From Bacteroidia bacterium (lineage in GTDB: Bacteria; Bacteroidota; Bacteroidia; NS11-12g; UBA955): a stretch of 64,000 bases of DNA. Made by a program: the position numbers and the translations under genes. Under the pieces are notes generated by a model that worked only from the letters and a program-made list of their open reading frames with translations, did no database searches and was not told the origin of the DNA. Within the stretch, counting starts at the first letter, position 1. Each line of letters starts with the position of its first letter. Shown here one piece after another: positions 12,768-54,268 of this stretch. The stretch spans positions 80,910 through 144,909 of the forward strand of contig JAMNXP010000002.1 of the NCBI GenBank assembly GCA_023653095.1, read 5' to 3'.

Positions 12768-12776
12768 TTAATGTCA

Positions 12777-27785: not shown

Positions 27786-29708
27786 ATGAATGCTTTGAGA
27801 CTTTTATTGACCACTTCAATTGCGGTTTTTTGTCAGACCATGTTTGCACAGGCTCTCTATGTATCATCGGGCGAAACCGTATTTATATCCTCCGGAACCA
27901 CAGTAACATCAACAAGTGGAGTGACAACCATTGTATCAGGGGGTACGTTAAATGTGGCGGGTGAATATCAAAGCGCAGGTAACTTTATCAATTCTGGAAC
28001 GCTTACAGCTACGTCTGGGACATTGACTTTTACTGGCTCCGGACAAACTGTTTCGGCCAACAATGCAACAGTGAAAAATGTGAATATTGGTTCATCGGCA
28101 GCTGTTACACTTAGCAGCGCACTTAATATTCAAGGGGGTACTAATTATGGTACTTTGACTGTTGCCAATGGCGGTACGCTCAATTCGGCCGGATATTTGA
28201 CTTTGAAGTCAGACGCAAATGGAAATGCAGTTGTTGCAGCTGGGTCCTCTTCTGGTTCATACATCTCAAACGCCGTGATCGTGGAGAGATACATCCCGGC
28301 CCGCAGAGCGTTCAGAATTCTATCCCCAAGCGTTACAACTTCAACTTCTATTTATGCAAACTGGCAAGAAGGTGGTTCTAGCAGCCCTTCTTTAGGTACT
28401 CATATCACCGGAAACAGCGGTTCATCTAACGGATTTGACAATACCGCGACCAACAATGCCTCTCTTTTTAGTTTTAACAACGCTTCTGGTTCAAATACCG
28501 ATGGAAGTTGGTCGGCAGTTACAAATACCAACACCAATACGTTGACTGCGGGTTCGCCTTTAAGAGTTTTAATAAGAGGTGATCGTACCATCGATCTATC
28601 TACAGCGGCCCCTACGCCTACAATAACTACCTTAAGAGCAACCGGTACTCTCGGACAAGGAAATGTCACAGTAAGTAGTCTGAGCCAAATTTCAAACGGA
28701 TTCAGTCTGGTTGGAAATCCATTTCCGACCCCTGTAAACATGAAGTCTGTTTTGGATAACGCTACCAATGTTTCTAATGCTTATTTTTATGTTTGGGATC
28801 CTCAAGTGAATACTCGCGGTGGTTATGTTACTTTTGATTTGAGCACCAGTACAAGCAATGTGGGGACTTCTAATCAAACGGTATTTCTTCAGCCTGGACA
28901 ATCCGCTTTTGTAAAAACGTCTTCTAATGGTTCAGCATCTTTGACTTTTGCTGAAAGTTATAAATCAACTGCTAGTATAAATCAAGGTGTGTTCTTAACC
29001 ATTCCTCCTCAATCGGTTTTGAAAATAGAATTATCGCAGCGTGATAGTTTTAAAGTGGGTGCAAATATGTGCGACGCGTTGATTTTGAAGTTTGATCCTT
29101 CAATGTCAAATACCTTAGAAGTTCAGGATGCGATCAAACCCATCAACCAAGATGAAAATTTGTCGGTTTTTGTTGGCGAAAAATTTTGTTCCATCGAATC
29201 AAGAAACATTCCTCAGAATGAAGAAATCATTGACCTAAGAATTTCTCAATTGAGGCATTTGAACTATACCTTGAAGGCTGAATTTACCGGGGATTTGGGA
29301 ATGGATGCTTATTTGTTGGATAGATTCACTGGCAAAACGCATCTTTTAAACAAAGTAGGCGAAACTATTGTCGAATTTGATGTTGATGCAACAACCGAGA
29401 GTAAAGCCAATCAGCGTTTTGCATTAATCTTTGATGCTGGAAACAACAGTAGAGTAAAGAGCATTCAACAGTCATTTAAAGCCTATCCAAATCCGTTAAG
29501 TGCATCGAAGATTACCTTAGATGTATTTGCGGCCCAAATTCAAAGCGTTGAAATCTATGACATTTCAGGCAGATACATGGGAAATTTGAAACCTGCCCTG
29601 AGCGAAAATGAGTTTGAACTTCACGAACAATTGCCTAACGGTGCGTATTTGCTAAGAGCAAACACCAACGAAGGTCAGTTTTCTACCACTATTTCTGTTG
29701 CTCGATAG
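27786..29708 (+). CDS. Secreted protein with Gly/Thr/Ser-rich beta-helix-like repeats and T9SS type-A C-terminal sorting domain
   Basis: Signal peptide. The N-terminal 160 aa are repeats of SGTTVTSTSGVTT..GGTLNVAG..SGTLTATSGTLTFTGSGQTV. The C-terminal ~80 aa (KAYPNPLSASKITLDVF...VEIYDISGRYMG...LPNGAYLLRANTNEGQFSTTISVAR) match a T9SS CTD. Confidence 0.75.
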   Translation: MNALRLLLTTSIAVFCQTMFAQALYVSSGETVFISSGTTVTSTSGVTTIVSGGTLNVAGEYQSAGNFINSGTLTATSGTLTFTGSGQTVSANNATVKNVNIGSSAAVTLSSALNIQGGTNYGTLTVANGGTLNSAGYLTLKSDANGNAVVAAGSSSGSYISNAVIVERYIPARRAFRILSPSVTTSTSIYANWQEGGSSSPSLGTHITGNSGSSNGFDNTATNNASLFSFNNASGSNTDGSWSAVTNTNTNTLTAGSPLRVLIRGDRTIDLSTAAPTPTITTLRATGTLGQGNVTVSSLSQISNGFSLVGNPFPTPVNMKSVLDNATNVSNAYFYVWDPQVNTRGGYVTFDLSTSTSNVGTSNQTVFLQPGQSAFVKTSSNGSASLTFAESYKSTASINQGVFLTIPPQSVLKIELSQRDSFKVGANMCDALILKFDPSMSNTLEVQDAIKPINQDENLSVFVGEKFCSIESRNIPQNEEIIDLRISQLRHLNYTLKAEFTGDLGMDAYLLDRFTGKTHLLNKVGETIVEFDVDATTESKANQRFALIFDAGNNSRVKSIQQSFKAYPNPLSASKITLDVFAAQIQSVEIYDISGRYMGNLKPALSENEFELHEQLPNGAYLLRANTNEGQFSTTISVAR

Positions 29709-34646: not shown

Positions 34647-34763
34647 AAATCAGTACGGAGTGTGTTTTTATTTTTTTCTATTTTATTAAATTATCAAATA
34701 ATTAAGATTATGGAAATAGCATTTTAGTTAGTGAATGAAAGTTACAAATTTGATAAATACTTG

Positions 34764-34771
34764 TATATTTG
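34764..34771 (+). promoter_or_regulatory. Candidate -7 box TAtaTTTG driving the five-gene GldLM-like operon
   Basis: TAnnTTTG match 23 nt upstream of ATG 34795. It lies inside the longer ORF-track ORF (start 34735), which supports the internal Met as the true start. Confidence 0.3.
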
Positions 34772-34794
34772 CTTTAAATTTTAACAAAAAATCT

Positions 34795-35274
34795 ATGAGA
34801 ATATTTGCTCTAATCGTTTTAATAACCATGCCTTTTGTTTCTCATGGGCAGTCAGATAAATCTGGAGATTTGCAAACGGCTGTTCGTCAATTAGAAGCAA
34901 GAAATAATGTATTGAATAAAAGAATTAGTGAACTTGAAGATGCTAACTACAAATTGAAGTCAGAGATTGAGTCGACCAAAGCGGATGTTCAAGCTGAAAT
35001 TCGCAGATCTCAAGAGCTTCAAGCTCAGAACGAAAGAGCTATGAATTTAGCATTAGATGGATTTACCAAAAAATTCGAAGATCAAAATAAAGTAGTTCAA
35101 GGAGTTCAAGATGAGTTGGGTCGCAAGATTGATCAACAATTAATTATCATGATCGTTGGCATACTTGTTGTTGTTATCATTTTCTTGGTACTCAATAACG
35201 CTGCAACAAAGAAAGCGTTGAAACAAAATGTAGCCAATTGGAATAATTTCCAAGAACACCTATTAAAAAAATAA
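34795..35274 (+). CDS. Coiled-coil protein with N-terminal signal peptide and C-terminal TM anchor (first gene of operon)
   Basis: MRIFALIVLITMPFVSHGQ signal, a heptad-like region Q/E/K-rich (LEARNNVLNKRISELEDANYKLKSEIESTKADVQAEIRRSQELQAQ), and a C-terminal helix LIIMIVGILVVVIIFLVL. A 6-nt gap separates it from the next gene. Confidence 0.5.
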   Translation: MRIFALIVLITMPFVSHGQSDKSGDLQTAVRQLEARNNVLNKRISELEDANYKLKSEIESTKADVQAEIRRSQELQAQNERAMNLALDGFTKKFEDQNKVVQGVQDELGRKIDQQLIIMIVGILVVVIIFLVLNNAATKKALKQNVANWNNFQEHLLKK

Positions 35275-35280
35275 AACAAT

Positions 35281-35778
35281 ATGAGTAATACACAAAAAGC
35301 GCAAAAGGGTAAACTTGATGCAGTAACCTTTGTCTATGGAGTCGGTGCAGCCATCGTATTGGTCGGAGCGATGTTCAAATTCTTGGGTTGGAATTTTGCC
35401 AATGAAATGTTCATCATTGGTTTGACCGTTGAAGCAATCGTATTTTTGATATCTGCGTTCGAAAGAAAAGTTACAGAAAAAGAATATCAATGGGAACAAG
35501 TATTTCCACAGTTGGATAATGAAGGTAATAGCACTGGTGTAGATACAACGGGTTATCAATCAGCTATGCAACAATTCAGCCAAACATTGGCTCAATTGAA
35601 CGAAGGTTTAAAGGAGATGACAGCTGCTGTTAACGATATCAAAACTGAAATGCGCACAAATGCTGACCAATCAAACCAAATGAAACAGTCAATGACTGAA
35701 TTCAACAGTTTGATGACCAACTACAATGATAATCTTAAGAAAATCAACGATCAGTACAATCAGCTTTTGAATAAGTAA
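35281..35778 (+). CDS. GldL/PorL-like motor protein homologue (short, 165 aa)
   Basis: Two N-terminal TM helices with YGVGAAIVLVGAMFKFLGW and IIGLTVEAIVFLISAFE. These resemble the GldL N-terminus from memory (YGxGAAVVIxGALFK ... TEAxIFxLSAFEP), including a TM2 glutamate (E51, codon 35431-35433) at the position of the essential GldL Glu49. The cytoplasmic coiled-coil tail fits too. Confidence 0.55.
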   Translation: MSNTQKAQKGKLDAVTFVYGVGAAIVLVGAMFKFLGWNFANEMFIIGLTVEAIVFLISAFERKVTEKEYQWEQVFPQLDNEGNSTGVDTTGYQSAMQQFSQTLAQLNEGLKEMTAAVNDIKTEMRTNADQSNQMKQSMTEFNSLMTNYNDNLKKINDQYNQLLNK

Positions 35779-35786
35779 TATCCTTC

Positions 35787-37196
35787 ATGGGAAAACTGAC
35801 CGTCAGAATCTCGAAAGCAAAGAACATCTCATTCATGAGATTGTCTTTATTTTACTTGATTTTCATTGTACAAATCTTCTTTACCTCTCCTGGAATGTAT
35901 GTTTTGCAGTATCCAGATGTTCAGGAGTCGCAGAAAATGGTGAACGAACGTTTACTATCGGAGTTGAATGTATTCAAACCAAAAGTACCTGAGCATGTAG
36001 AACTCAAAAAAGCGACATTGCAGTGTCTTACTTCTTTGGAAGATGTGAAGAAAGCTTATTACGCATATGAAAAAGAAGCAAGTATTTCTGGTGACCGACT
36101 CAGAGAAAGTAAGTTTGCTGAACAGCAAATACGCAACGGTAAATGGGGTCCAATCATTGAAAGAACTCTAAATGACTTTATCAAGAATTATAATAAGGTT
36201 GGTAATAAGAATCTAAAGGAAGAGTTTATTTCATTGGAAGACAGTAAAGGCATCGAATTTGATGGATTGTACTACTTCTTTAAGGGTACACCCAACGGTG
36301 TTATACCTTCGGTGATTGAACATTTTAAAACCGTAATGCTTTATCATTCCATTTTGGCAATGAAAAAGAAAGAATCTGAACTTCCTAAGTTTGAGATTTT
36401 AACCCTAGACGAGACTGATTTCATCCAAAAGTTCAAGAAGAATTTGATTTTAGGCGAACCCCTCGATTTGATTATTCGTCCCAAAGAAATTGGAAAAAGA
36501 CCAATAGTAAAGATCAATGGTTCTCCAATTAAAGTAGATTCATTAAGTTCTTCTGATTTTAAGATGTACTTTTTACCGCCTGCGGTAGGTGATTACGCAT
36601 TGGAAGTAATGTCGAACGACAAAAGATTGTTTGCATCGTTCAAGGTGGTGCCACCTTCGTTTAGATTCATCAACTCTGCAAGTTCGGTTTCTGGTTTCGT
36701 GGGAGACCCACTATATGTTACATTAGATAGCGGATACGTCCCCAAAGGAAAATACATCACTTTTTCTTCAAAAGTGGCAAAGGTTGAGCGTAAAGGTTGG
36801 AAATTGACCATTACACCTGAGAGAGAAGGGATTTTTGTTGTGCAAATGTTTGATAATGGCAAGTTTATGGATCAATCAGAATTTGTTGCAACTGTTAAAC
36901 CTGAGGAAGAAGTTGTTTTGATGGATATCAGTGGTAATTCCGTTGACTTGAGTCAAGCCAATAAATTAGAAGCGAAAAATACGTTTTGGCAAGTGGTAGA
37001 TTTCGATATGAGTGTAACACATCCTAATGGATTTTCAAAAAGAACACACAGCTCTACGCGTTTCTTACGGAATGACTTGAGAGAACTAGAATCATCAGCT
37101 CCAGCGGGCAGTGTTTTGATTTTCGACAATATCCGCTTGGTAGGTCAGACGGATGGTGTGGTAACAAAAGGTAGGCCGGTAATAATTATTAAGTAA
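35787..37196 (+). CDS. GldM/PorM-like bitopic protein, paralogue 1 (469 aa)
   Basis: N-terminus MGKLTVRISKAKNISFMRLSLFYLIFIV: a single TM helix opening with Arg18 (codon 35838-35840), then a helical K/E-rich region followed by beta-rich regions like the GldM D1 and D2-D4 domains. It shares the MGxxxVRxxKAK N-terminal motif with the next gene. Confidence 0.5.
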   Translation: MGKLTVRISKAKNISFMRLSLFYLIFIVQIFFTSPGMYVLQYPDVQESQKMVNERLLSELNVFKPKVPEHVELKKATLQCLTSLEDVKKAYYAYEKEASISGDRLRESKFAEQQIRNGKWGPIIERTLNDFIKNYNKVGNKNLKEEFISLEDSKGIEFDGLYYFFKGTPNGVIPSVIEHFKTVMLYHSILAMKKKESELPKFEILTLDETDFIQKFKKNLILGEPLDLIIRPKEIGKRPIVKINGSPIKVDSLSSSDFKMYFLPPAVGDYALEVMSNDKRLFASFKVVPPSFRFINSASSVSGFVGDPLYVTLDSGYVPKGKYITFSSKVAKVERKGWKLTITPEREGIFVVQMFDNGKFMDQSEFVATVKPEEEVVLMDISGNSVDLSQANKLEAKNTFWQVVDFDMSVTHPNGFSKRTHSSTRFLRNDLRELESSAPAGSVLIFDNIRLVGQTDGVVTKGRPVIIIK

Positions 37197-37197
37197 C

Positions 37198-38568
37198 ATG
37201 GGAAATTTTGTTAGAGTAAAAAAAGCCAAGGTTCTGCGTTTTCAATTGATAAGCGTTATGTACTTGTTATTTATCTCGCTATCCATATTGCAAATCCCCA
37301 TTGATTGGTTGAGAACAAACATCAATATGGCTCAGTATATAAATAATTCCACGTCTGTTGAGATGGATAATAAGCAGATTATCGCTGTTTATGACGAGAT
37401 AGAGACTATTGAGAAGGAGTTTTACAAAGAAGTGGGTTACGATTTAGATAGGAAAATCTACAAAGATCCAGACAGTTATAGCGGAACAGATATGTATTTT
37501 ATCCGTTGGAAGAAAGGTTATAAGTTGTTTAACAAAATTGTAGAACTGAAAAAGTATCATTTATCCCTTCCAGATAACAATCCCAAAAAGGCTGAGTTCA
37601 AAAAGTTATTTGCTGACGATTTGAAAAATGGGTTAGAAGCAGAAAAGGCAACGCTTTGGGTAGAGTGGAAGTTTAAGCACGTACCTGCTGGTGTAGTGGT
37701 TACTTGGTTGGCAGATTTGAAATTGAGAATGAAACTGTTAAACGGTGGAATAATTCTTAAGGAAGAGCAAAATGCTGATTATTTGGTGCTTATGGCTTAC
37801 AACATGGAAGCGGTTCGTCCAGGAGACACGGTTAGAATTGTGGTTTTCAATCATGAGGAAATGCAGGTAAGTGCCACTGAAAACGACAAAGTGTTTGATT
37901 TAAAAGATTGGCATGGAGATACCTTGTTTTTTGTACCAAAATATGTGGGTATCTACAATTTGAGTTTCAAAAAGAATGGGGTTGAGGAGAACTTAAAAGT
38001 GACTTCGATTGCCAAGACTTTTGAACGCGAGAAAGATAACAAATACAACATTTTTTACGAAGGAAAACCAGCGGAACTGCATTATGTGAATTTGTTAAAT
38101 CCAGCAGGTATTAGCTGTGATTGTGATCCAAATATTGCCATGAATAGAAGCAGTAACAAGGTAACATTTACGCCGCAAAAGTCTGGTTGGTGCAGTTTTG
38201 TGATCAACAATAAAGACGGTAGAGCGCTTTTGAGGGACTCAATTTATGTTCAAAAGATACCTGAGCCCTTTCTTTATGCCGAGGGAAGTAGCGGAAGTGT
38301 AATGTCAAGAACGCGTCTAAAAGCTGATGGCTTTGTGTATATTTATGGAACACATCCTGATTTACAAAAGTTTAAATATTCGTTATCAAACATTAAGTAT
38401 CGTTTGGTAGGTGCTACGAATGAGGTAATGAGTTCTTCGGGTAGTAAACTTTCTTTGACAGCAGATCAAGTTGACAAAGTAAAGTATATTGTGGTTCAAG
38501 GTGCCGATATCAATACAGGTTCTAAGGGAATGGTTTTTGAGAAGCCATTAGTAATTCAAATTAAGTAA
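37198..38568 (+). CDS. GldM/PorM-like bitopic protein, paralogue 2 (456 aa)
   Basis: N-terminus MGNFVRVKKAKVLRFQLISVMYLLFISLSIL matches the GldM N-terminal pattern R-QKMINLMYLVF. Arg14 (codon 37237-37239) sits 7 residues before MYL, exactly as GldM Arg9 sits before M16-Y17-L18. Helical region then beta-rich periplasmic region. A 1-nt gap separates it from paralogue 1. Confidence 0.55.
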   Translation: MGNFVRVKKAKVLRFQLISVMYLLFISLSILQIPIDWLRTNINMAQYINNSTSVEMDNKQIIAVYDEIETIEKEFYKEVGYDLDRKIYKDPDSYSGTDMYFIRWKKGYKLFNKIVELKKYHLSLPDNNPKKAEFKKLFADDLKNGLEAEKATLWVEWKFKHVPAGVVVTWLADLKLRMKLLNGGIILKEEQNADYLVLMAYNMEAVRPGDTVRIVVFNHEEMQVSATENDKVFDLKDWHGDTLFFVPKYVGIYNLSFKKNGVEENLKVTSIAKTFEREKDNKYNIFYEGKPAELHYVNLLNPAGISCDCDPNIAMNRSSNKVTFTPQKSGWCSFVINNKDGRALLRDSIYVQKIPEPFLYAEGSSGSVMSRTRLKADGFVYIYGTHPDLQKFKYSLSNIKYRLVGATNEVMSSSGSKLSLTADQVDKVKYIVVQGADINTGSKGMVFEKPLVIQIK

Positions 38569-38574
38569 TCAACA

Positions 38575-40782
38575 ATGAGAAATATATTTCATACCTTTTC
38601 AACTATTTTAGCCTTGGCATCATTTTCGATGCTCCAAGCGCAGTCTAGCGAAGTGGTGATATCTGGCACACGGGTGGTAGATTCTTCGGAAACTTTTAGC
38701 GTAAAGCCCGGTCAAACATTGATTTTTGAGGAAGGCGCGCGTTTGTTGGTATTTGGTGGCCTAAATATCAAGGGTACACAAGATAATCCAACAAAAATCA
38801 TCTCACGCAACGCTGAAACCCCTGGTCTGGGTATTGTCATTGCAGATAATAAATCTAGAAATCAGGATGTCATTGTTGAGAATGCCGAAGTATCAGGATT
38901 GGTTCAGGCCCTCCGATTTGATCCTTTTTGGTACAGGAAGTCGGTGCGTATTAATAACGTGAAGTTCTCAGGTATTGATTCTAGGGAGCCTTTGATTTAT
39001 GCATCTTCGCCTCTGTTAGATTTGAGAGATAATAAGAGTATTGATTTTCAAATCACCAATTCACGATTCTTTAATAATACGGGTAATGTAATTCTTGAAA
39101 AAGTGGGTTCATTGGGAATCAAATATACTCTTGATAAATTGACTTTCAACGACAATACCTTGAAAGGAGATAATGCATCTATGGGAATTCTTCATTTAGA
39201 TTTTGCTCGCACGGTAATTGCTGATGAAGTTTTATTGGGTGATTTGACTTTTGTGAACAACAAGGCAGGAGATAAGAACATAGGTCTTTCGGTTAGCGGC
39301 GGATCTGGTGTTCCTGTTAATATTCCAACAGGAAAAGTATTTTCAAATGCCTCTGGTACTCAAGTCATTTTTGATAACCGTCGCGATCCACGTTTGCCTA
39401 AAATTGGTGCAAATGAGACATCCAGCCTGAAGGAAAAAGGAGGCGATGAAATCTTCATCACTGGAGCAACTCACAAATTTGGCCGTTTAGCCCTAGAAGT
39501 TGTTGGTCAACCTAAGATTGTTGAAATTAAAGATTCTTTTGGTAGAGCGGTTTTCATCAATCAAAACCTTGTAGGTGATAGCTTAATTGCCACTTATTTA
39601 GAAGGTAATCCGGTTACTTTAACCTTACAAAACGGATTGAAATACAATGTGCCTCAGTTAACTGCGGCGCAACTACCTCCACCTTTATATAGAAGGGTAG
39701 ATACTACGTTAATTAGTCCCGAGTGGCCTGATACCACTTTGAAAGCAAAAGTGGGATTTATGATTATTATTCCGATGTTCCATAATCCCAAAGAAATCGA
39801 GAAATTGAAAACTTGGGAATTCGGTTTTTGGGGCGGTGGATCTATTTATGGGGGCGGTGATATTGCGTACAAGGGCTGGCCAATACCTTCCACAATAGAA
39901 ATTAGCGGTGGTGGTTATGCACAGTATAATCTAACCAATGCGTTTTCATTAAAGTCAAATATTTACCGATCAACGGTTTCGGTGCACAATCTTTGGGCAC
40001 AAGGTCTCCTATCTGGTGGAAAGGTCCCATTGGTTACCGATACGGCTGGTAATAAAATTCAACCATATCCTAATTCTTGGCCAATGATGTTTGTCACTCC
40101 AATGACGGTTCTGGACGTAGAAGGACTATGGCATATAGGTAAGTACAGTTTTAAGCCCGGTCAAAAAGGAAAGTTTGTGAATTCAATGGGAATTAGCTTG
40201 GGAGTATTCACATACACGCCATACAGAATAGCATACCGTAATCAAAAAAATGATGAGTCTGACGCCGCCTATAAAGCGCGTTTGTGGAGTGAGGAGAGAG
40301 TGAATTTGAGGGAGCTGGGTTTGGAAGGACAAAACTTCCTCGAGAACAGTAAACCATATGGTAAATTCTCTATGAATGTTGGACTTTCTTGGCAATTGGC
40401 ATACATCAGAAAACGTTGGGCCTTCAAAGGTGAAGCAAAAGCGGTTTACACCTTTACCGATTATTTAGATGATTATGGTCCTGGTTTATGGTATGGCGGT
40501 GATTATGATGCTTGGTTGCAAAGCGTAAAAGACAATCCAACCTATGCCCAAGATCCTACATTCTTCGCAAATGGAGATCTGAATCAGCCATTGGCAAAAT
40601 TATACAAAACCTCAGGCGGTTCAACCACTCACACTGTGATTTCCCCTAACGCCGCTCGTTCTACCAATGGTGTCAACGACTGGTACTATCAAGCTCATAT
40701 GGGACTTTCATACAGACTACAGAAGAAGGATGAGAAACCCAAGATTGAGACTCTAAAAGAGAAAGAATCAAAGAAGAACTAA
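38575..40782 (+). CDS. Secreted hypothetical protein with N-terminal parallel beta-helix-like repeats (last gene of operon)
   Basis: Signal peptide MRNIFHTFSTILALASFSMLQAQ. Repetitive Asn/Gly-rich beta-solenoid-like segments (NNTGNVILEKVG.., NDNTLKGDNASMG.., FVNNKAGDKNIGLS..). The C-terminal half is rich in aromatics and Gly. A 6-nt gap separates it from the upstream gene. Confidence 0.45.
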   Translation: MRNIFHTFSTILALASFSMLQAQSSEVVISGTRVVDSSETFSVKPGQTLIFEEGARLLVFGGLNIKGTQDNPTKIISRNAETPGLGIVIADNKSRNQDVIVENAEVSGLVQALRFDPFWYRKSVRINNVKFSGIDSREPLIYASSPLLDLRDNKSIDFQITNSRFFNNTGNVILEKVGSLGIKYTLDKLTFNDNTLKGDNASMGILHLDFARTVIADEVLLGDLTFVNNKAGDKNIGLSVSGGSGVPVNIPTGKVFSNASGTQVIFDNRRDPRLPKIGANETSSLKEKGGDEIFITGATHKFGRLALEVVGQPKIVEIKDSFGRAVFINQNLVGDSLIATYLEGNPVTLTLQNGLKYNVPQLTAAQLPPPLYRRVDTTLISPEWPDTTLKAKVGFMIIIPMFHNPKEIEKLKTWEFGFWGGGSIYGGGDIAYKGWPIPSTIEISGGGYAQYNLTNAFSLKSNIYRSTVSVHNLWAQGLLSGGKVPLVTDTAGNKIQPYPNSWPMMFVTPMTVLDVEGLWHIGKYSFKPGQKGKFVNSMGISLGVFTYTPYRIAYRNQKNDESDAAYKARLWSEERVNLRELGLEGQNFLENSKPYGKFSMNVGLSWQLAYIRKRWAFKGEAKAVYTFTDYLDDYGPGLWYGGDYDAWLQSVKDNPTYAQDPTFFANGDLNQPLAKLYKTSGGSTTHTVISPNAARSTNGVNDWYYQAHMGLSYRLQKKDEKPKIETLKEKESKKN

Positions 40783-40789
40783 ATACGGA

Positions 40790-40812
40790 AGGCCCCAAAT
40801 GGGGCCTTTTTT
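40790..40812 (+). terminator. Rho-independent terminator ending the five-gene operon
   Basis: AGGCCCC aaat GGGGCCT perfect 7-bp GC stem followed by TTTTTT. Confidence 0.85.
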
Positions 40813-40813
40813 A

Positions 40814-40846
40814 TTGATGAAATCACCAATAAATCACCTAAATTTG
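40814..40846 (+). promoter_or_regulatory. Candidate Bacteroidota promoter for sucB (TTG-N22-TAaaTTTG)
   Basis: TTG at 40814-40816 and TAAATTTG at 40839-40846, with the ATG at 40868. Spacing matches the -33/-7 consensus. Confidence 0.4.
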
Positions 40847-40867: not shown

Positions 40868-42154
40868 ATGGCCATAGAAATCATTGTTCCAGCTCCCGGA
40901 GAATCTGTTAGTGAAGTTACCATCGCCAATTGGTTGGTTAAAGAAGGCGATTGGGTTGAAATGGATGCACCACTCGCAGAATTCGAAAGCGACAAAGCAA
41001 CCTTTGAGGTGAATGCAGAAAAAGCCGGTGTAGTGGAAAAGCTGATTGGCAATATTGGCGATACCATCGCGGTGAATAACGTAATTGCTTTGATAAATAC
41101 CGAAGCAGCTAGACCTGAAAATGCAGCTCCAGAAGCTCCTGTTGTGTCAAAGACTGAAGTAGCACCGGTTGCATCTCCCGCTCCAAGTGCAAAAGTGGAG
41201 AGCGCGAAATCTGAATCTTCTTCGGCCGTTAAAACGTCCCCCGAAAACAACGCAGATGCAAATGCATCGCCTGTGGCATTGCAGTTGCTGAATGAATATG
41301 GCATTAGTGCGAGTCTGGTTCAAGGGTCTGGGTCGAATGGTAAAATTACGAAAGTGGATGCGCTTGAGGCCATTGTAAAGTTGGGTGGAACCAAGAAAGT
41401 AGAAGCTAATAATTATTCTCAAACCAATCGCGAGCCGCGCCGCGAGAAAATGTCAAATCTCCGTAAAACGGTAGCTAGACGTTTGGTTGCAGCAAAAAAT
41501 GAAACCGCTATGTTGACTACCTTTAATGAGGTGAACATGAAGCCGGTGATGGATTTGAGAACTCAGTATAAAGATAAATTCAAAGAAGAATTTGGGGTGA
41601 ACTTGGGCTTTATGAGTTTCTTCACAAGAGCCGTTTGTATTGCTCTGAAAGATTGGCCAGCTGTAAATGCGAGCATCGAAGGTGAAGAAATTGTTTATCA
41701 TGATTATTGCGATGTTTCTATTGCGGTAAGTGCGCCTAAAGGACTTGTTGTGCCCGTGATTCGCAGCGCTGAAACGTTGAGTCTTCAGGAAATTGAGAAA
41801 GAAGTTAAGCGTTTGGCAACTAGAGCCCGCGATAATAAGTTAAGCATTGATGAAATGACCGGAGGTACTTTCACTATTACGAATGGTGGTGTTTTTGGAT
41901 CAATGATGAGTACTCCAATCATTAACCCTCCTCAGAGTGGTATTTTAGGAATGCACAACATTGTGGAGAGACCGGTTGTAGAAAAAGGTGAAATAGTCAT
42001 CAGACCTATGATGTACTTGGCTTTGAGTTACGATCACAGAATTATTGACGGACGTGAAAGCGTGAGCTTCTTAGTAAGAGTGAAAAACTTACTAGAGAAC
42101 CCTGAAATGCTTTTCGACGGTAAACGTCCCGAAGAACGCGTACTAGGATTATAA
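40868..42154 (+). CDS. sucB: Dihydrolipoyllysine-residue succinyltransferase, E2 component of 2-oxoglutarate dehydrogenase
   Basis: N-terminal lipoyl domain (..[11 protein letters not shown]..), an Ala/Pro linker, and a catalytic domain ending [34 protein letters not shown], very close to E. coli SucB. Confidence 0.8.
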
Positions 42155-43014
42155 TGCACAATCACGACCACCACGACCATCACATCGAGATGGGCAAGAA
42201 GTTTCTTGTGGGGGTAGTGCTGAATCTTTCTTTTGTTTTTGTTGAGTTTTTCTATGGATGGAAAGTTCAATCTATTTCTCTATTTGCGGATGCTTGGCAT
42301 AATTTATCTGATGTTGCTGGTCTGATTATTAGTTGGGTGGCATTCAGCATGGCTACCAAGAAACCCACAGAGAATTATACGTATGGCTATTCTAAAGGAA
42401 CCATTTTGGCGTCTTTGGCCAATTGCATGTTGCTGTTCATTGCAGTTTACGTAATGGGTGCTGATGCTATACACCGGCTCGGGAATCCTCAGCCAGTGGA
42501 AACAGGTACCATTATGTGGGTAGCAGGTATGGGGGTTGTTGTGAATACGGTTACGGCATTGCTGTTTATGAGCAGCAATGAATTGAACAATAGGGCGGCA
42601 TTCTTGCACATGGCTGCTGATGCTTTGGTATCGGTTGCTGTTGTTGCCGGGGGGTGGTTTATGTCAATGGGTGCTCCGGAGTGGATTGATCCTGCTTTGG
42701 GTTTGATCATTTGTTTGGTGATTTTATGGGGGACATTAAAATTATTCAGTAGTAGTTTAAGATTGAGTTTGGATGGGGTTCCTGAGGGACTTGATATCCA
42801 TCAAGTTTCAAATGAGCTGTTGTCGATTCCAGGTTTGGAGAGAATTGAAAATATGCACATTTGGGCCATCAGCACCACCCGAAGCGCGTTTACGGCTACG
42901 CTTGAAATAAGGACTGACAGGTCTCAAGAAATTGAAAGTATAAAAGATCAAGCGCGGGAAATATTGAAGGGACATCGGATTCAACACACTACTTTAGAGA
43001 CCTTGTTGGTATAA
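42154..43014 (+). CDS. Cation diffusion facilitator (CDF) family divalent-metal efflux transporter
   Basis: His-rich N-terminus [10 protein letters not shown], six TM helices, and the CDF signature region. The TAATG overlaps the sucB stop. Confidence 0.85.
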   Translation: MHNHDHHDHHIEMGKKFLVGVVLNLSFVFVEFFYGWKVQSISLFADAWHNLSDVAGLIISWVAFSMATKKPTENYTYGYSKGTILASLANCMLLFIAVYVMGADAIHRLGNPQPVETGTIMWVAGMGVVVNTVTALLFMSSNELNNRAAFLHMAADALVSVAVVAGGWFMSMGAPEWIDPALGLIICLVILWGTLKLFSSSLRLSLDGVPEGLDIHQVSNELLSIPGLERIENMHIWAISTTRSAFTATLEIRTDRSQEIESIKDQAREILKGHRIQHTTLETLLV

Positions 43015-43051
43015 GTTTATTTTTTTAACTTCTCTTTCGTGAAAATGGAAA

Positions 43052-44311
43052 GTGATGAAAGAGGAAGTGTTGCATCGGTTTTGGAACCCGAAGTTTTTGG
43101 GGCAAAATACCTTTAAATTGGTTGGGAATCAACTTTTAGAAGTTCAGTTTTTTGGGGACTTGAATCTGCTTCAAGGCCCTGATTTTAAGGACTTTAGGGC
43201 AAAAATTGACGGGCAGTTATTTGCTGGATTTATGGAGATGCATTTGTTGTCGAGCGATTGGTTAAAACATCAGCATTATGTAGATCCTAAGTATGATAAT
43301 GTAGTGTTGCATGTGGTATGGGAAGATGATTTGAAATTGAATCCCATTCGCAATAAAGAGGGGCAAATTCTGCCCACGTTGGAATTGTCAAGGTATTTTT
43401 CGAAAAAAGATTTGCAAAATGTGCAAATGGAAAAGGTCGGTCATTTGCTGTGTGAGTACCGAATTATTGCCGAAAGAAATTTAAATGAAATCAATGAAAT
43501 TATCGAGATTCAAAAAAAGCGAGCCGTATTAACGAAGTTAGAAATACAGAAAAAGAAAATTCATGATATATTGGAATATACCCAATACGATTGGGAGCAA
43601 ACAGCTTGGATCTGGCTAGGTTCATATTGGGTGGATCCGCAGAATAGATTATCGGCTGAGCGGGTATTCAGGACTATGTCTTTAAATAAGATGAAACGAG
43701 GGAAATGGGAAGATGTGTTGGTAGAGATTTTGTATCGGTTTGGGCTGTTTGAAGCAACGCCAGATTTGCCCATTTTCAGACAGATAATTCCTATGGTTCA
43801 AAGCAGATTGAAGTATTTGGAGGAGCACCTGAGAGATGAACGTGAGTTACTTCCTTGGTATCATGGAAAGGTGCGGTATCATAATTATCCGTTGGTGAAG
43901 TTCATACAATATTTATCTTTTGTGGCGCATTTGGATGGTGATTTGACGGAGTTGTTTCGGAATTTGGATTCATGGAGCAAATTGGGAAAGAGTTATCAGG
44001 TGATAGATTATAAATTCGGGTTTTCGAAGTTGGCGTCAGATCAAGTGTCTAGAATTGCGGTTAATGCGTGGCTGCCCTTATTGTTGGTATATAGAGATCA
44101 TAAAGGTGAATCAATTGGGGAGTGTCAGATCTTTGATTTGATGCGAATTTGGAAGCCAGAGATGAATGGTATAGTTAAGAAATTTAATAACATAGATAGA
44201 GTTCCATTGGATGCGTTTGATAGTTTTTCACGAATATCGATGTGGCAGAATTGGTGTAGTGTCAAAAAATGCAGTAATTGTGAAATTGGCAAATCACTTT
44301 GGAACGTATAA
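43052..44311 (+). CDS. Conserved hypothetical protein (DUF2851-like)
   Basis: N-terminus MMKEEVLHRFWNPKFLG... resembles the Bacteroidota DUF2851 family N-terminus (recollection). 419 aa. Confidence 0.45.
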   Translation: MMKEEVLHRFWNPKFLGQNTFKLVGNQLLEVQFFGDLNLLQGPDFKDFRAKIDGQLFAGFMEMHLLSSDWLKHQHYVDPKYDNVVLHVVWEDDLKLNPIRNKEGQILPTLELSRYFSKKDLQNVQMEKVGHLLCEYRIIAERNLNEINEIIEIQKKRAVLTKLEIQKKKIHDILEYTQYDWEQTAWIWLGSYWVDPQNRLSAERVFRTMSLNKMKRGKWEDVLVEILYRFGLFEATPDLPIFRQIIPMVQSRLKYLEEHLRDERELLPWYHGKVRYHNYPLVKFIQYLSFVAHLDGDLTELFRNLDSWSKLGKSYQVIDYKFGFSKLASDQVSRIAVNAWLPLLLVYRDHKGESIGECQIFDLMRIWKPEMNGIVKKFNNIDRVPLDAFDSFSRISMWQNWCSVKKCSNCEIGKSLWNV

Positions 44312-44327
44312 ACTGATATTTTGCCCT

Positions 44328-44335
44328 TAAATTTG
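44328..44335 (+). promoter_or_regulatory. Candidate -7 box TAaaTTTG upstream of lhgO
   Basis: TAnnTTTG match 9 nt upstream of ATG 44344. Confidence 0.25.
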
Positions 44336-44343
44336 TAGAAATC

Positions 44344-45558
44344 ATGAAAAAAATCGCCATCATTGGGGGAGGAATTGTAGGGGTTGCAACAGCGTTTCAA
44401 TTGTTGAAGGAAACTTCAGATTGTGAGATTGTATTGTTAGAGAAAGAGAATCGAGTTGCAGCGCATCAAACGGGAAATAATAGCGGAGTGATCCACTCGG
44501 GTATTTATTACAAGCCCGGGAGTTTGAAAGCTAAAAATTGCCTAAGAGGGTACGATTTTCTCATTGATTTTTGCAAAAAATACAACATAGATTATGAATT
44601 GTGTGGTAAAGTGATTGTTGCAATCAACGAACATGAAATACCCGCATTGGAGAAATTGTACGATAGAGGAAACGAGCATGGTTTGCAAGGTTTGAAGTAT
44701 TTAACCTCCCAAGAAATCAAAGAAATTGAACCTGAATGTACCGGGATTAAAGGTGTTTTCGTACCACAAACCGGAATTGTAGATTACAAAAGGGTGACAG
44801 AGAAATTGGCTGAAGAAGTTGGTACTAATGCGCGCGCGAGCATCAAACTGTCATCAAAAGTGAATGCTATTGTTTATAGAGATTCAAAGGTGCAAATTGA
44901 GTACACGTCCCCCGAAGGAAAGAAAAATATTCAGGTAGATTATGCCATCAATTGTGCAGGACTTTACTGCGATAAAATTGCGGAGCTTTCGGGCGAGAAG
45001 TTGAATGTAAAGATCATACCATTCAGGGGTGAATATTACACCGTGAAACCAGAGAGAGCGCATATTATTAAGAATTTGATTTATCCAGTGCCAGATTCTA
45101 ATTTTCCGTTTTTAGGGGTGCATTTTACGCGCAGAATTACGGGTGAAATTGAGGCTGGACCCAATGCGGTTTTTGCATTCAAGAGAGAAGGGTATAAGAA
45201 GACTGACTTTAGCGCGAGTGAATTTCTGGAGAGTGTATTTTGGCGTGGATTTCAAAAGGTAGCCTTTAAGTATTGGCAAACCGGAATTGGTGAATATTAC
45301 CGGTCGTTTTCGAAAAGGGCCTTTAACAAGGCACTTCAAAAGTTGGTTCCTGCAGTGACTATGGACGATCTAGAACCAGCAGGAGCTGGGGTTAGAGCTC
45401 AAGCATGTGACAAAGAGGGTAATTTGATTGATGATTTTTACATTCAGGAGTCTGATCAGTTTATTCATGTGCTGAATGCGCCTAGTCCAGCGGCAACATC
45501 GTCGTTGTCAATTGGCATGTATATTTCGGACAGAGCCCGTGAGAAATGGGGAATCTAA
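44344..45558 (+). CDS. lhgO: L-2-hydroxyglutarate oxidase (FAD-dependent)
   Basis: N-terminus MKKIAIIGGGIVGVATAFQL...LLEKE...HQTGNNSGVIHSGIYYKPGSLKA is highly similar to E. coli LhgO (IIGGGIIGMSTA...LLEKE..[23 protein letters not shown]). Confidence 0.8.
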   Translation: MKKIAIIGGGIVGVATAFQLLKETSDCEIVLLEKENRVAAHQTGNNSGVIHSGIYYKPGSLKAKNCLRGYDFLIDFCKKYNIDYELCGKVIVAINEHEIPALEKLYDRGNEHGLQGLKYLTSQEIKEIEPECTGIKGVFVPQTGIVDYKRVTEKLAEEVGTNARASIKLSSKVNAIVYRDSKVQIEYTSPEGKKNIQVDYAINCAGLYCDKIAELSGEKLNVKIIPFRGEYYTVKPERAHIIKNLIYPVPDSNFPFLGVHFTRRITGEIEAGPNAVFAFKREGYKKTDFSASEFLESVFWRGFQKVAFKYWQTGIGEYYRSFSKRAFNKALQKLVPAVTMDDLEPAGAGVRAQACDKEGNLIDDFYIQESDQFIHVLNAPSPAATSSLSIGMYISDRAREKWGI

Positions 45559-46157
45559 AAGAGGTTTTAGGAAAGTATTTACCAGCGGGCAGTGTTGATT
45601 ATGCTCATGATTTACTGTGGAAGTACGGTATCCAATTGCATATTAAGAAACCTCGTACCACAAAGTTTGGAGATTATAGATATCCTAAACCAGGAGAGCC
45701 GCACCGAATCAGCGTCAACAATAATTTGAATCCATATGCATTTTTAGTGACGTTTTTGCACGAAGCGGCGCATTTAGTGAATTTCGAAAAGCGCGGAAGA
45801 CATAATATCAGGCCGCATGGGAAAGAGTGGAAATTGGAATTCAGAGAGATCGCAACTCCCCTTTTAAATAAAGAATTTTTACCAGAACCGGTGTTGTTTG
45901 CCTTAGATGGATATTTGAAAAATCCGGCGGCCAGTAGTTGCACTGACCCCAAATTATTCAGAACTCTAAAGAAATACGACCTTCAGCAAGATAATAAATT
46001 GATGGTGGAAGAAGTTCCAATGGAGGGTAATTTTAAAACCAAAGATGGACGTGTTTTCAGAAAAGTAGAAAAACTCAGAAGCAGATATCGCTGTATTGAG
46101 TTGAACACTAAGAAAACATACTTGGTTCCGGGTTTGATGGAAGTAGAGTTGGTTTAA
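45546..46157 (+). CDS. SprT-like zinc-metalloprotease-fold domain protein
   Basis: HExxH in FLHEAAHLVNF with a downstream His/Glu (HGKEW). 203 aa. 13-nt overlap with lhgO. Confidence 0.45.
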   Translation: MGNLKEVLGKYLPAGSVDYAHDLLWKYGIQLHIKKPRTTKFGDYRYPKPGEPHRISVNNNLNPYAFLVTFLHEAAHLVNFEKRGRHNIRPHGKEWKLEFREIATPLLNKEFLPEPVLFALDGYLKNPAASSCTDPKLFRTLKKYDLQQDNKLMVEEVPMEGNFKTKDGRVFRKVEKLRSRYRCIELNTKKTYLVPGLMEVELV

Positions 46158-46163
46158 TTATCT

Positions 46164-46898
46164 TTGCCATCGTACTCGCACGACATGAAAACCTTATCTA
46201 TCGTAATTCCAGCATATAACGAAGCGGCAACCATTCATCTGATTTTGAATAAGGTAGCAGAAGTAGAGTTGTTGGGCGGAATGTCAAAAGAGGTAATTGT
46301 TGTTGATGATGCTTCAAAAGACGGTACATGGAAGGTGCTGAACGAATATAAATCTCAACACCCAGAACAAAACTTACAACTGTTTCAACATCCGGTAAAT
46401 CAAGGCAAGGGAGCGGCATTGCATACCGGAATTCAAAAGGCAACGGGCGAGGTTACCGTTATTCAAGATGCAGATTTAGAATATGATCCGCATGAATTCA
46501 ATTTGTTGTTAGATCCCATTTACAGAGATGTTGCTGACGTGGTATATGGTTCTCGATTTATGGGCGGGAATCCGCATAGGATCTTATTTTTCTGGCATAG
46601 TATTGGAAACAAGTTCTTGACTTTTTTGAGCAATATGTTTACCAATCTAAATTTAACGGATATGGAAACCTGCTACAAAATGTTCAGAACCGATGTATTG
46701 CAGGGTTTAAAGCTGAAAGAAAAGAGATTTGGGTTTGAACCTGAGGTAACGGCAAAGATGGCGCGTGTTCCGAAAATCAGAATATACGAAGTAGGAATTT
46801 CTTACTACGGAAGAACCTTCGATGAAGGAAAGAAAATTGGTTGGAAAGACGGAATTAGGGCTATTTATTGTATTCTGAAGTACAATCTTTTCGCTTAG
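46164..46898 (+). CDS. Family 2 glycosyltransferase (Dpm1/ArnC-like polyprenyl-phosphate sugar transferase)
   Basis: [24 protein letters not shown], and a DxD-like QDADLEYDP. Confidence 0.85.
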
Positions 46899-51514: not shown

Positions 51515-52775
51515 AGTACTACATATCAATGCCTCCTCAGAGGGTGGAGCATCTGTGGTTGCTCAACGACTCAATGAAGGATTGAATCGTTTTGGTCAAG
51601 AGGTTGAATCCAAACATTTGGTATTTTCTGGTCAATTGAGCCATGCACAAAGTGCTTCACCCTACATATTATGGGCCGATAATCTGCCAAAGAGGTGGTT
51701 TACTTTCCTAAAACATGCATTAGATAAGCTCAGTTTCTTGCGATTTGAGGCATCAAAGAAGGTCAGATTTCAATTCAGTCATGCCAGTCAAGGATTTGAC
51801 ATTTCCAACCATGAATTGGTACAATGGGCAGATATTATACATTTACATTGGGTACATAAAGGATTCCAATCTTTTGAAACTTTGGAAAAGTTATTGTCAG
51901 TACCCCACAAAAAATTTGTTTGGACCTGTCATGATTTATGGCCTGTAACCGGAGGTTGTTATTATACCTGGGGATGCGAAAATCATCAAGTGGCTTGCGG
52001 TAACTGTAAGTATTTAAAACATCCTGCCCTGAATGATATTTCTAGTTCTTTACTTGAGCGAAAAATTAAACTTTGGGGTAACAACCAAATCAAATTTGTG
52101 ACACCCAGTAGTTGGCTTGCCCATCAAGCCAATTCTAGCGTTGTTATGAAAAACAATGTTGAAATGTCTGTGATTCCCAATCCTATAGACTCTGAGAAGT
52201 TTCAACCCTTGGAAGAAGGAGTGAGGCAGGAATTGAAGCAGAGCCATGGATTTGATAAACCGTTGTTGATGTTTTCGGCAGCGTACTTACAAAATCCAGC
52301 AAAGGGTTTTTTATTTTTCATTGAGTTGTGTAATTGTCTGCGCCAACAGAATATTGATTTTGAGGTTTTGATTTTAGGAGACAATAAAAACGAGGAATTG
52401 GGGCCATTTTCCTTTAAGTTTACGCATTGGGGATACGTTACTGACATGGACAGGGTGAAATTAGCCTTCCAATTGAGCGATTTATATGTCATTACTTCGG
52501 TGCAAGACAACCTACCAACAACCATCATAGAAAGCTTGTCTATGGGCACGCCGGCTGCAGGGTTTAGGGTAGGAGGTATACCAGAAATGATAGACGATGG
52601 CGTTAATGGTTTCCTGGTTGAATCGGGTGATGTTTTAAGCCTTTCAAAAAAGGTGGGAGACTTCCTAAAAAACAATCGGGCCGATTTTAGAAATCAAGCC
52701 CGACTGAAAACATTAAATACATACGATACAAAGGTGATAGTAAATCAAATTACCACGGTCTATAAATCTCTTTAA
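51501..52775 (+). CDS. GT-B fold glycosyltransferase (family 4-like)
   Basis: C-terminal E..GFG.P-type motif (DNLPTTIIESLSMGTPAAGFRVGGIPEMIDDGVNGFLVE). Confidence 0.8.
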   Translation: MSKIKVLHINASSEGGASVVAQRLNEGLNRFGQEVESKHLVFSGQLSHAQSASPYILWADNLPKRWFTFLKHALDKLSFLRFEASKKVRFQFSHASQGFDISNHELVQWADIIHLHWVHKGFQSFETLEKLLSVPHKKFVWTCHDLWPVTGGCYYTWGCENHQVACGNCKYLKHPALNDISSSLLERKIKLWGNNQIKFVTPSSWLAHQANSSVVMKNNVEMSVIPNPIDSEKFQPLEEGVRQELKQSHGFDKPLLMFSAAYLQNPAKGFLFFIELCNCLRQQNIDFEVLILGDNKNEELGPFSFKFTHWGYVTDMDRVKLAFQLSDLYVITSVQDNLPTTIIESLSMGTPAAGFRVGGIPEMIDDGVNGFLVESGDVLSLSKKVGDFLKNNRADFRNQARLKTLNTYDTKVIVNQITTVYKSL

Positions 52776-54268
52776 TCTACGTTGTCATGCAACATCCTGT
52801 TGGGTTGCACAGTGAAATTGTTGTCTTTAGAATGTGTTTCAGTGCCCTGAATGGTTAATCTACTTACTTCTACAGCGCTACTAGGAGGTGCCGAAACCAA
52901 TTCTACGTTACGTCTCAAATAAGCAGGAATATCCATGTCGTTGTCATGTATACTCGCTTTGTTTTCTCGACTCAACGATTGTACGGCAGGCTGTTGATAA
53001 TTTAAGTGCAGCTGTGAATTACGGTTACTTTGTGTTTTAAAAAGATCTTCAACGCTTGGAGTGTTGATGTTCTCTTTCACGGTTAATGGCTTAGATTCTA
53101 TAACAGGTTCTGTTTTGGCAGCCATCGGCTCTCTGATAGGCTCTCTTGCAGGATCTCTCGCAGGCTCTCTAGATGGAGTTTCGAAACTAGCATCTTCAAT
53201 TTCTAAAGGAAGATCGGTTGGTACAAAGGTTTGAGTTTGTGCAACTTCTTCTATAAGTTGGTCAGTAAAAACTTCTTTTTGAATGGCTGTTACTTCTTCA
53301 AATCCAGTTGCAATAACGGTCACACTGATTTTGTCTTCCAATGTTGGTTCGAGGGTAATACCCATTTTTAGCAATGCATTGTTACCCGCTTCTTCTTGTA
53401 GGTAAGATGTAATGATTCGAGTTTCAGACATGGTGGGTGCTTTGGTGCCGTAGGTTAGGTTAATCAAAAGGTGTTTTGCACCAAAAATTCTAGTACTATC
53501 AAGCAATGGACTATTTAATGCAGCTCTAACGGCTAATTCCGCACGATTTTCACCGGCAGCAGTTCCAGTGCCCATTAAGGCTTGACCTGATCCTTGCATG
53601 GCGGTTTTAACGTCGTTGAAGTCTACGTTTAAGTGTCCGGTTTTGAAAATGATCTCTGCAATTCCCCTCGCGGCAGTGCAAAGTACATCATCGGCTTTCG
53701 AAAAGGCTTCTAAGAACGACAAATCGCCGAACATATCTACGATACGGTCATTGGAAATGGATATAAGAGCATCTACATGAGGTTTTAAATCAGCAATACC
53801 CTGTTGGGCTTGTTTTATCCTTACTGGACCTTCATCTGAGAAAGGAATGGTCACAATTCCAACCGTCAAAATGCCCATTTCTTTGGCGAATTTTGCAATG
53901 ATGGGAACTGCCCCAGTACCTGTTCCACCGCCCATGCCGGCAGTCAAGAAAATCATTCGGGTACCATCACCTAGCATTCGTTGAATATCGGCTTTGCTTT
54001 CTTCTGCAGCTTTTGCTCCCATATTGGGATCAGATCCAGCGCCAAGTCCTGCAGTAAGTTCATTACCCAATTGTATTTTATTGGGAACAGGACTATGTCT
54101 GAGTGCTTGGTTATCTGTATTGCAGATGAAGAAATCTACGCCCTCAATACCTTCACGGTACATATGATTGACAGCGTTTCCTCCGCCGCCACCTACTCCA
54201 ATGACTTTAATGATGTTATTCAATTTATTCGGTTGATTAGGTTCTGAATGAAAATCAGGTTGAAACAT
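52772..54268 (-). CDS. ftsZ: Cell division GTPase FtsZ
   Basis: IKVIGVGGGGGNAVNHM tubulin/FtsZ signature, GTGTGAAP T7 region, and a disordered C-terminal linker. Confidence 0.95.
   Translation of the reverse strand: MFQPDFHSEPNQPNKLNNIIKVIGVGGGGGNAVNHMYREGIEGVDFFICNTDNQALRHSPVPNKIQLGNELTAGLGAGSDPNMGAKAAEESKADIQRMLGDGTRMIFLTAGMGGGTGTGAVPIIAKFAKEMGILTVGIVTIPFSDEGPVRIKQAQQGIADLKPHVDALISISNDRIVDMFGDLSFLEAFSKADDVLCTAARGIAEIIFKTGHLNVDFNDVKTAMQGSGQALMGTGTAAGENRAELAVRAALNSPLLDSTRIFGAKHLLINLTYGTKAPTMSETRIITSYLQEEAGNNALLKMGITLEPTLEDKISVTVIATGFEEVTAIQKEVFTDQLIEEVAQTQTFVPTDLPLEIEDASFETPSREPARDPAREPIREPMAAKTEPVIESKPLTVKENINTPSVEDLFKTQSNRNSQLHLNYQQPAVQSLSRENKASIHDNDMDIPAYLRRNVELVSAPPSSAVEVSRLTIQGTETHSKDNNFTVQPNRMLHDNVD

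Follow-up and report, generated by a model that had tools for sequence, protein, structure and literature searches.

Two adjacent genes in a 64,000-nucleotide stretch of a Bacteroidia bacterium genome (contig JAMNXP010000002.1 of assembly GCA_023653095.1; this whole stretch is hereafter the window) encode diverged paralogues, which we call A and B and which are very probably GldM-type proteins of a non-canonical GldLM-like system. They belong to a cassette of five genes, X-L'-A-B-Y, at 34.7-40.8 kb, that is separate from gldKLMN and also encodes a short GldL-like protein (L'), a bitopic membrane protein (X) and a secreted protein with a PorG-like beta-barrel (Y). Only B keeps the transmembrane (TM) arginine of GldM, and we read the two proteins from their sequences, with moderate confidence, as the subunits of a heterodimeric axle. 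A broader reading is offered tentatively: the cassette might represent a second class of GldLM-type proton-driven motors, with the core L'-M-Y (where M is a GldM-like protein), in which a PorG-like protein is driven directly without a GldK/GldN track and in which an obligately heterodimeric axle, with the proton-coupling arginine in only one subunit, evolved at least twice. The searchable literature, which does not cover subscription-only papers, contained no published account of such a cassette.

The X-L'-A-B-Y cassette and its GldM-like proteins

The five open reading frames (ORFs) of the cassette are tightly packed on the + strand, with spacers of 6, 8, 1 and 6 nt between consecutive genes. 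An intrinsic-terminator-like hairpin (GGAAGGCCCC-AAAT-GGGGCCTTTT followed by a T-run, 40787..40816, + strand) lies 5 nt past the stop codon of Y; with a stem of 10 pairs, 6 of them GC, it is the strongest such hairpin in the region. Given the short gaps and this terminator, X-L'-A-B-Y forms one promoter-to-terminator operon, of which the promoter end is the weak one. The AT-rich intergenic stretch 34647-34794 contains a candidate Bacteroidetes-type -7 element (TATATTTG, matching TAnnTTTG; 34764..34771, + strand), 24 nt 5' of the likely start codon of X. The motif is not enriched across the window (59 matches versus about 73 expected); the site is consistent with a promoter, as a weak call. In the source record (locus tags NBV77_03145-03155, on a 287.5-kb contig), A, B and Y are annotated as "hypothetical protein" and L' as "gliding motility protein GldL".

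A (35787..37196, + strand, 469 amino acids [aa], NBV77_03145) and B (37198..38568, + strand, 456 aa) are separated by a single base (TAA-C-ATG) and begin with MGKLTVRISKAKN and MGNFVRVKKAKV, respectively. A first-pass annotation made from the letters of the window had described them as tandem GldM-like paralogues, 1 nt apart, with a common MG(K/N)xxVR(I/V)xKAK-type start; the spacing and the start are correct in the sequence and its translations, and the paralogy is borne out by several lines of evidence. BLASTP of A against B was marginal (E=0.076), yet the match was colinear across about 400 residues, and hhalign of the A-family against the B-family alignments gave a probability of 97.9% (E=6.5e-13, 351 columns). 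By these alignments, A and B are true but old paralogues, with a similarity well beyond chance. The homologue search returned about 70 clusters of full-length homologues for each protein, all from uncultured Bacteroidota and all unannotated. In many A orthologues, gene calls of the Joint Genome Institute begin at Met37 (433 aa), thus dropping the conserved TM helix; strong conservation of the N-terminal 36 residues shows the start that gives 469 aa to be the right one.

The link to GldM is clearest for B, which matched Pfam GldM_1st (PF12081) with 33.2 bits, above the cutoff of 25. A had no match in Pfam or NCBIfam, neither protein exceeded the cutoff of GldM_3rd, GldM_4th or an NCBIfam GldM model, and phmmer of A or B against the PDB gave no matches. 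Profiles reached further. Against all PDB sequences, the sole matches of the family-B profile were GldM and PorM, weak and restricted to the TM helix, and those of the family-A profile were weak and limited to filamin-type immunoglobulin (Ig) domains. Among 1.84 billion representative proteins, the family-B profile reached Pfam-positive GldM-type proteins (E-values from 1e-11 to 1e-6) and also the members of family A (about 1e-8), so that the similarity to GldM/PorM on which the first-pass proposal depended is found by profile methods. The AlphaFold monomer models (predicted local distance difference test scores of 80.6 for B and 77.1 for A) are alike: a single TM helix leads into about 140 residues of helical domain, and three beta domains follow. 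The helical segment followed by beta-rich periplasmic segments, previously likened to GldM D1-D4, is therefore seen in both models. GldM and PorM are the closest solved folds to this architecture (TM helix, helical D1, three Ig-like domains), with identities to GldM of just 8-19% in structural alignments. Two cysteines of B, Cys307 and Cys332, are invariant across 18 orthologues and lie in the second beta domain, where an intradomain disulfide between them is probable; conserved cysteines are lacking in A.

The gene upstream of A encodes L' (35281..35778, + strand, 165 aa), a short GldL/PorL-like protein made of a TM hairpin, carrying Y19, K33, E51 and E61, and a helical cytoplasmic tail of about 85 residues. 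It scored 90.4 bits against TIGR03513 (cutoff 68.3) and 89.4 bits against Pfam GldL_N (cutoff 24), and phmmer matched it to PorL (7sat_C, E=3.6e-16) and to GldL (7sau, 7saz, 6ys8 and 7sax). The residues Y13, K27, H30 and E49 of GldL are functionally important, and E59 is additionally required for gliding (10.1101/2020.05.11.089193, PMC8986121). L' is GldL-like because it exceeds the TIGR03513 cutoff and keeps the equivalents of the Tyr, the Lys, Glu49 and Glu59; Y19, K33, E51 and E61 are conserved among window-type L' proteins. The position of His30 is a glycine in every member of the L' family (Gly36 in the window). Family members are 155-196 aa long and lack the long cytoplasmic C-terminal domain of the canonical proteins (GldL 215 aa, PorL 309 aa); among the matches listed in the homologue search, 120 of 120 were of the short type. 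One subclade (L032, 3929-4594; L040, 8001-8591) has a basic N-terminal cytoplasmic extension of 30-55 residues, for a total of 196-222 aa.

At the other end of the cassette, Y (38575..40782, + strand, 735 aa) begins with a signal peptide and ends in a C-terminal PorG/DUF6089-like outer-membrane beta-barrel (final residues GLSYRL); the N-terminal domain between them, about 390 aa, has no detectable family. The repeat pattern of the N-terminal domain is suggestive of a beta-helix. The NCBIfam model T9SS_PorG (NF052316) matched 12 of 13 Y family members (best E=2.3e-17), all of them below its 130-bit equivalog cutoff (29 bits for the window Y), and Y is thus taken to carry a PorG-homologous domain without being an equivalog. 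DUF6089 matches were found in relatives of Y; beyond DUF6089/PorG, the Y profile gave nothing significant against the PDB and Pfam, and no PDB sequence matched. PorG/SprF proteins are coupled to the GldK/PorK track by a C-tail cysteine motif, through a disulfide with Cys343 of GldK/PorK (PMC12635249). The translation of the window Y contains no cysteine, and Y hence cannot form the PorG-GldK disulfide. In one related MAG (L009, 7372-9519), two ORFs of 410 and 304 aa stand in place of an intact Y, owing to a frameshift or pseudogenization or to an assembly error; this was the only broken cassette gene seen.

The first-pass annotation had set A and B against the canonical GldLM motor. The organism almost certainly has a conventional type IX secretion system (T9SS), since three predicted T9SS cargo proteins are encoded in the window: two with type-A C-terminal domains (CTD; Por_Secre_tail), one of which also has a copper monooxygenase domain, and a third of 2644 aa with PKD repeats and a type-B CTD (CHU_C) (2512-4056, 27786-29708 and 12765-20699, respectively). 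Such cargo, also encoded in related loci, and an L' that is auto-annotated as GldL and passes TIGR03513 would fit a canonical T9SS/gliding motor of this lineage, in which a lineage-specific duplication had occurred and for which GldK and GldN were encoded elsewhere. This is very improbable. GldK and GldN homologues were absent from the window cassette and from all of the more than 40 related loci, although the gldKLMN genes are normally contiguous. L' falls about 50 residues short of GldL in length and has glycine for His30 in all members, no NCBIfam GldM model matches A or B, the PorG-like fusion conserved downstream has no cysteine and cannot form the disulfide, and the family is patchy and also present as L'-M-Y in other orders. 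We treat X-L'-A-B-Y as a separate cassette, without GldK/GldN and with a PorG-like outer-membrane protein, rather than as a version of canonical GldKLMN.

The transmembrane arginine and a proposed heterodimeric axle

In GldM, R9 is highly conserved and Y17 invariant, and both are functionally important (10.1101/2020.05.11.089193, PMC8986121). We numbered the TM positions back from the invariant Tyr-Leu over all fetched loci (Tyr-8 being the eighth residue ahead of the tyrosine). R14 of B lies eight residues ahead of Y22-L23, and the family-B profile aligns these residues with R9...Y17-L18 of GldM (6ys8, 7saz, 7sat), confirming the previously proposed identity of spacing between the arginine and MYL. 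In the TM helix of A (SFMRLSLFYLIFIV, within 35787..37196, + strand), Y23 corresponds to Y17 of GldM and the R9 register is occupied by S15; R18, at a position that is Arg or Lys in the family, lies five residues ahead of Y23-L24, that is, 3 residues or about one helical turn deeper, as had been noted. The earlier claim that both proteins have the TM arginine of GldM thus stands for B and fails for A. Every full-length B-like copy has Arg at Tyr-8, Lys, Arg or Gln at Tyr-6 and a non-basic residue at Tyr-5. The A-like pattern in the fetched loci is Ser, Thr or Ile at Tyr-8, Met, Lys or Arg at Tyr-6, and Arg or Lys at Tyr-5.

Apart from the arginine, A keeps the Tyr-Leu of GldM, and Tyr-Leu-x-Phe-Ile is present in both A and B. 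In A and B alike, conservation peaks in the TM helix (entropy of 0.46 versus 1.29 bits for the whole protein in A, and 0.38 versus 1.51 bits in B), which makes both helices look packed inside protein rather than lipid facing. The distal D4-like domain varies much less in A (entropy of 1.10 bits) than in B (1.79 bits); the conserved motifs of this domain of A (FWQVxDF...TRFLRNxLRExE) suggest that its tip may make a more constrained contact than the tip of B.

These patterns bear on whether A stands in the ring at all. A could be a degenerate accessory outside the axle, a GldM-derived, membrane-anchored scaffold or regulator in the periplasm that binds the arm of B, Y or X from outside while only B2 occupies the L' ring, and its lack of the highly conserved, functionally important arginine of GldM, the absence of a Pfam or NCBIfam GldM match and a distal domain that is its most conserved soluble part would all agree with such a role. 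A simple anchor exposed to lipid should drift, however, whereas the TM helix of A is its most conserved region, with Tyr-Leu-x-Phe-Ile and a conserved basic residue, and A matches B in domain count and length, as for a side-by-side dimer. We consider the accessory role improbable.

The distribution of the cassette was surveyed by scanning one genome per GTDB species, with additional look-ups of distant homologues. The species-level scan revealed 29 loci, all in freshwater or environmental Bacteroidota metagenome-assembled genomes (MAGs), and the surveyed loci include a 3.43-Mb contig flagged as circular (L040). The order X-L'-A-B-Y was intact in all 39 fetched window-type loci with sufficient flank, with both A and B at full length, A/B junctions of -1 to +12 nt, and one L' gene and one Y per A/B pair. 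Among window-type cassettes, neither A alone nor B alone was found beside L'. The cassette is kept down to about 25-30% identity and in varied gene neighbourhoods. Both copies are therefore always present in these loci, and none of them has a pseudogenized A or B, the two points on which the first-pass annotation had proposed to check the pair.

Outside this group, we found a three-gene core, L'-M-Y, in other Bacteroidota (L041, 8001-15041; L043, 7476-11833; L045, 2768-6769), without GldK/GldN and unannotated. Its single M proteins (514-551 aa) have Arg at Tyr-8, Lys at Tyr-6 and no basic residue at Tyr-5. A second tandem pair occurs in a Bacteroidales MAG (L042, 4030-7003; GCA_021107155.1), where two 494-aa M genes are mutual best matches with 30.6% identity; proteins of 669 and 350 aa of unknown function are encoded upstream, where X would be. 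In a neighbour-joining tree of these very diverged sequences, the two L042 copies are sisters (100% bootstrap) within the single-M clade (95%), apart from the A clade (90%) and the B clade (70%). Tyr-8 is Ile in the upstream copy, M1, where -6/-5 are Lys-Lys, and Arg in the downstream copy, M2. If the tree is right, the loss of the arginine and the gain of a basic residue one turn up in the upstream copy apparently arose twice.

A pair of genes that is always kept together could also encode two alternative homodimeric axles, A2 and B2, each with its own L' pentamer, as two motors that share a ring protein and perhaps differ in output or regulation through their Y or X partners. Canonical GldM and PorM are homodimers (10.1101/2020.05.11.089193), single-M cassettes must use homodimers, and the distal domains, in whose conservation A and B differ most, could reflect different targets. 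Nevertheless, no window-type cassette has only A or only B beside L', each pair has a single L' and a single Y, and the near-overlapping stop and start codons suggest equimolar synthesis; the loss of the arginine from the upstream copy in two apparently independent duplications is easier to understand if the partner supplies it in the same complex. Two homodimeric axles are thus somewhat unlikely, although they are a more serious alternative than an accessory role for A.

We favour a heterodimeric axle because of the obligate co-occurrence of A and B with a single L', the near-overlapping genes, the conservation of the TM helices and the apparently convergent asymmetry; as only one copy keeps the key arginine, the halves of such a shaft would probably be unlike. 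It has been proposed for GldLM that the two copies of GldM alternate in an ion pair between R9 and E49 and that the unpaired GldM offers Y17 as a proton donor (10.1101/2020.05.11.089193, PMC8986121). Transposed to the cassette, one A beside one B would form the axle within an L' pentamer (5:1:1), and A, B and L' would make up the inner-membrane, proton-driven part of an envelope-spanning assembly. R14 of B would pair with Glu51 of L', and A would be the permanently non-paired partner, giving Tyr23, the equivalent of the proposed proton donor, and a Lys or Arg one turn higher. Successive power strokes would then be non-equivalent owing to the asymmetry between A and B. The four-domain periplasmic arms would reach the outer membrane, where the distal domain of A, and possibly that of B, would engage Y and drive it directly, without a GldK/GldN ring or a disulfide link. 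We infer the 5:1:1 stoichiometry, the rotation, the contact with Y and the biological output.

Several considerations weigh against a heterodimeric axle or this account of it. Gene linkage and co-conservation are equally expected if the A2 and B2 homodimers are both needed, and with its basic residue at Tyr-5, A might form a self-sufficient A2 axle. The asymmetry is not universal, since the A-like protein of a diverged cassette (L037, 2005-3495) retains Arg at Tyr-8 (KNKLLRNNIVVLLYLLF), which may be the ancestral state preceding the charge shift. The convergence depends on neighbour joining of highly divergent sequences, among which tandem copies homogenized by gene conversion could pass for the products of an independent duplication. 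The contact with Y and the biological output are suggested only by gene order and the weak similarity to PorG, and no cultured carrier of the cassette was identified.

Relation to known motors

The closest known system is GldLM/PorLM (PDB 6ys8, 7sat, 7sau, 7sax and 7saz; periplasmic GldM/PorM, 6ey0, 6ey6 and 7cmg). The cassette shares with it a GldL-type TM hairpin with the essential Tyr, Lys and Glu residues, M proteins that combine a single TM helix (with Arg-x7-Tyr-Leu in B) with a helical D1 and three Ig-like domains, and adjacent L and M genes in the same order. The likeness probably extends to a proton-driven 5:2 rotary unit that spans the periplasm. Unlike GldLM/PorLM, the cassette has two diverged M paralogues, one of them without the arginine, an L' of 165 aa (versus 215-309 aa) with Gly for His30, no GldK/GldN, a large cysteine-free PorG-like fusion downstream and an additional coiled-coil membrane protein, X. 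A similar mixture characterizes Y in comparison with the PorG/SprF-type barrels, which are disulfide linked to the GldK/PorK track (PMC12635249, PMC12365241). Its C-terminal region is homologous, below threshold, to the 8-stranded barrel, its gene lies with or near a GldLM-type motor, and it is a plausible outer-membrane recipient of motor force. At the same time, Y, at 735 aa, is extended at its N terminus by a domain of about 390 aa and carries large insertions in the barrel, has no C-tail cysteine motif and has no GldK/PorK partner in the cassette.

An axle made from two diverged paralogous genes has a parallel in AglR-AglQ-AglS of Myxococcus xanthus, a 5:2-type ion-driven motor of the TolQR/ExbBD/MotAB class. 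An AglQS heterodimer within an AglR pentamer has been predicted by AlphaFold (PMC11761067), and whether AglQ and AglS form hetero- or homodimers is still unmeasured (PMC9389320). The arrangement of two axle genes beside one pentamer gene is matched by A, B and L', with both axle genes always retained, but this is an analogy only, as the families are not homologous. The AglRQS proteins differ from A and B in being TolR-like, with an Asp-based proton relay, peptidoglycan-binding domains and short axle proteins that do not span the periplasm, and they occur in another phylum.

Nearer in kind are the single-M modules of L041, L043 and L045, which have a short L', a GldM-like protein in which the TM helix is followed by a YIPSDF-type motif, and a Y homologue whose barrel is DUF6089/PorG-like, and which also lack GldK/GldN. 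They differ from the window cassette in having one M, with Arg at Tyr-8 (presumably a homodimer), no X, and an M of 514-551 aa of the kind matched by Pfam GldM_1st, GldM_3rd and GldM_4th; the Pfam GldM models recognize those of L041 and L043, and that of L045 has a weak GldM_4th match only. Three Pfam-positive matches of the deep search (P0194, P0200 and P0223, the last being M2 of L042) were rejected as canonical GldM, as they lie in L'-M-Y modules. Many of the Pfam-positive "GldM" proteins in which YIPSDF follows the TM helix seem to be members of L'-M-Y and not of gldKLMN. The deep search also revealed a further GldM-like group (P0208 and P0222, 455-495 aa), with the TM motif NRYRLI(L/T)LLY and Arg at Tyr-8.

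The identical axle subunits of GldLM, and of 5:2 motors in general, are proposed to take turns in ion pairing with the ring. If the heterodimeric reading is true, an axle of two unlike subunits, one of them with the canonical arginine, would test the need for this alternation. Nature would then have supplied a "half-site" mutant of a 5:2 rotary motor, from which it would follow that rotation can proceed without alternating two-site catalysis, and the axle would provide a built-in marker of asymmetry for structural and single-molecule work. With its three to five genes, no GldK/GldN ring and the PorG-like fusion as its sole outer-membrane component, the cassette defines a compact GldLM-type system, and it could be a minimal model of how force is transferred from GldM-type shafts to outer-membrane proteins. 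Moreover, because L' is labelled as a gliding motility protein and its four partners as hypothetical, genomes may be mis-scored for gliding or T9SS motor genes.

X and other features of the window and related loci

The first gene of the cassette, X (34795..35274, + strand, 159 aa; its ORF is listed from 34735, for 179 aa), encodes a bitopic membrane protein. From its sequence, the predicted topology is a signal peptide (MRIFALIVLITMPFVSHG|Q) followed by a periplasmic coiled coil, a TM helix and a cytoplasmic tail. The coiled coil holds a near-invariant ELQAQNERAMNLALDxFxxKFExQN (ELQAQNERAMNLALD) and the tail a conserved NWNxFQEHLLKK, features that are conserved in all window-type cassettes. 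Library searches with X gave coiled-coil noise and no informative match. A defence-system identity for the five proteins was rejected, since a PADLOC scan also gave coiled-coil noise only.

Some of the public records that carry the cassette deserve caution. Eight of them (L006, L008, L011, L017, L020, L025, L027 and L030) are named "uncultured Rhizobium sp.", "uncultured Bifidobacterium sp." or "Chitinophaga pinensis", and these names on cassette-bearing Bacteroidota records are probably wrong. One MAG (ZE-13may13-36, CANKVM01) contains two cassettes (L007 and L022), with B proteins 82% and 44% identical to that of the window, reflecting either two copies or a mixed bin.

The cassette adjoins a group of genes at 40868-46898 encoding SucB (2-oxoglutarate dehydrogenase E2), a DUF2851 protein, a DAO oxidoreductase, a SprT-like protein and a GT2 protein. 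The same genes lie beside the cassette in the distant relatives L001 and L003, in partial synteny. The remainder of the window is made of housekeeping genes, including ftsZ (52772-54268) and a dcw-like cluster that extends up to 63910.

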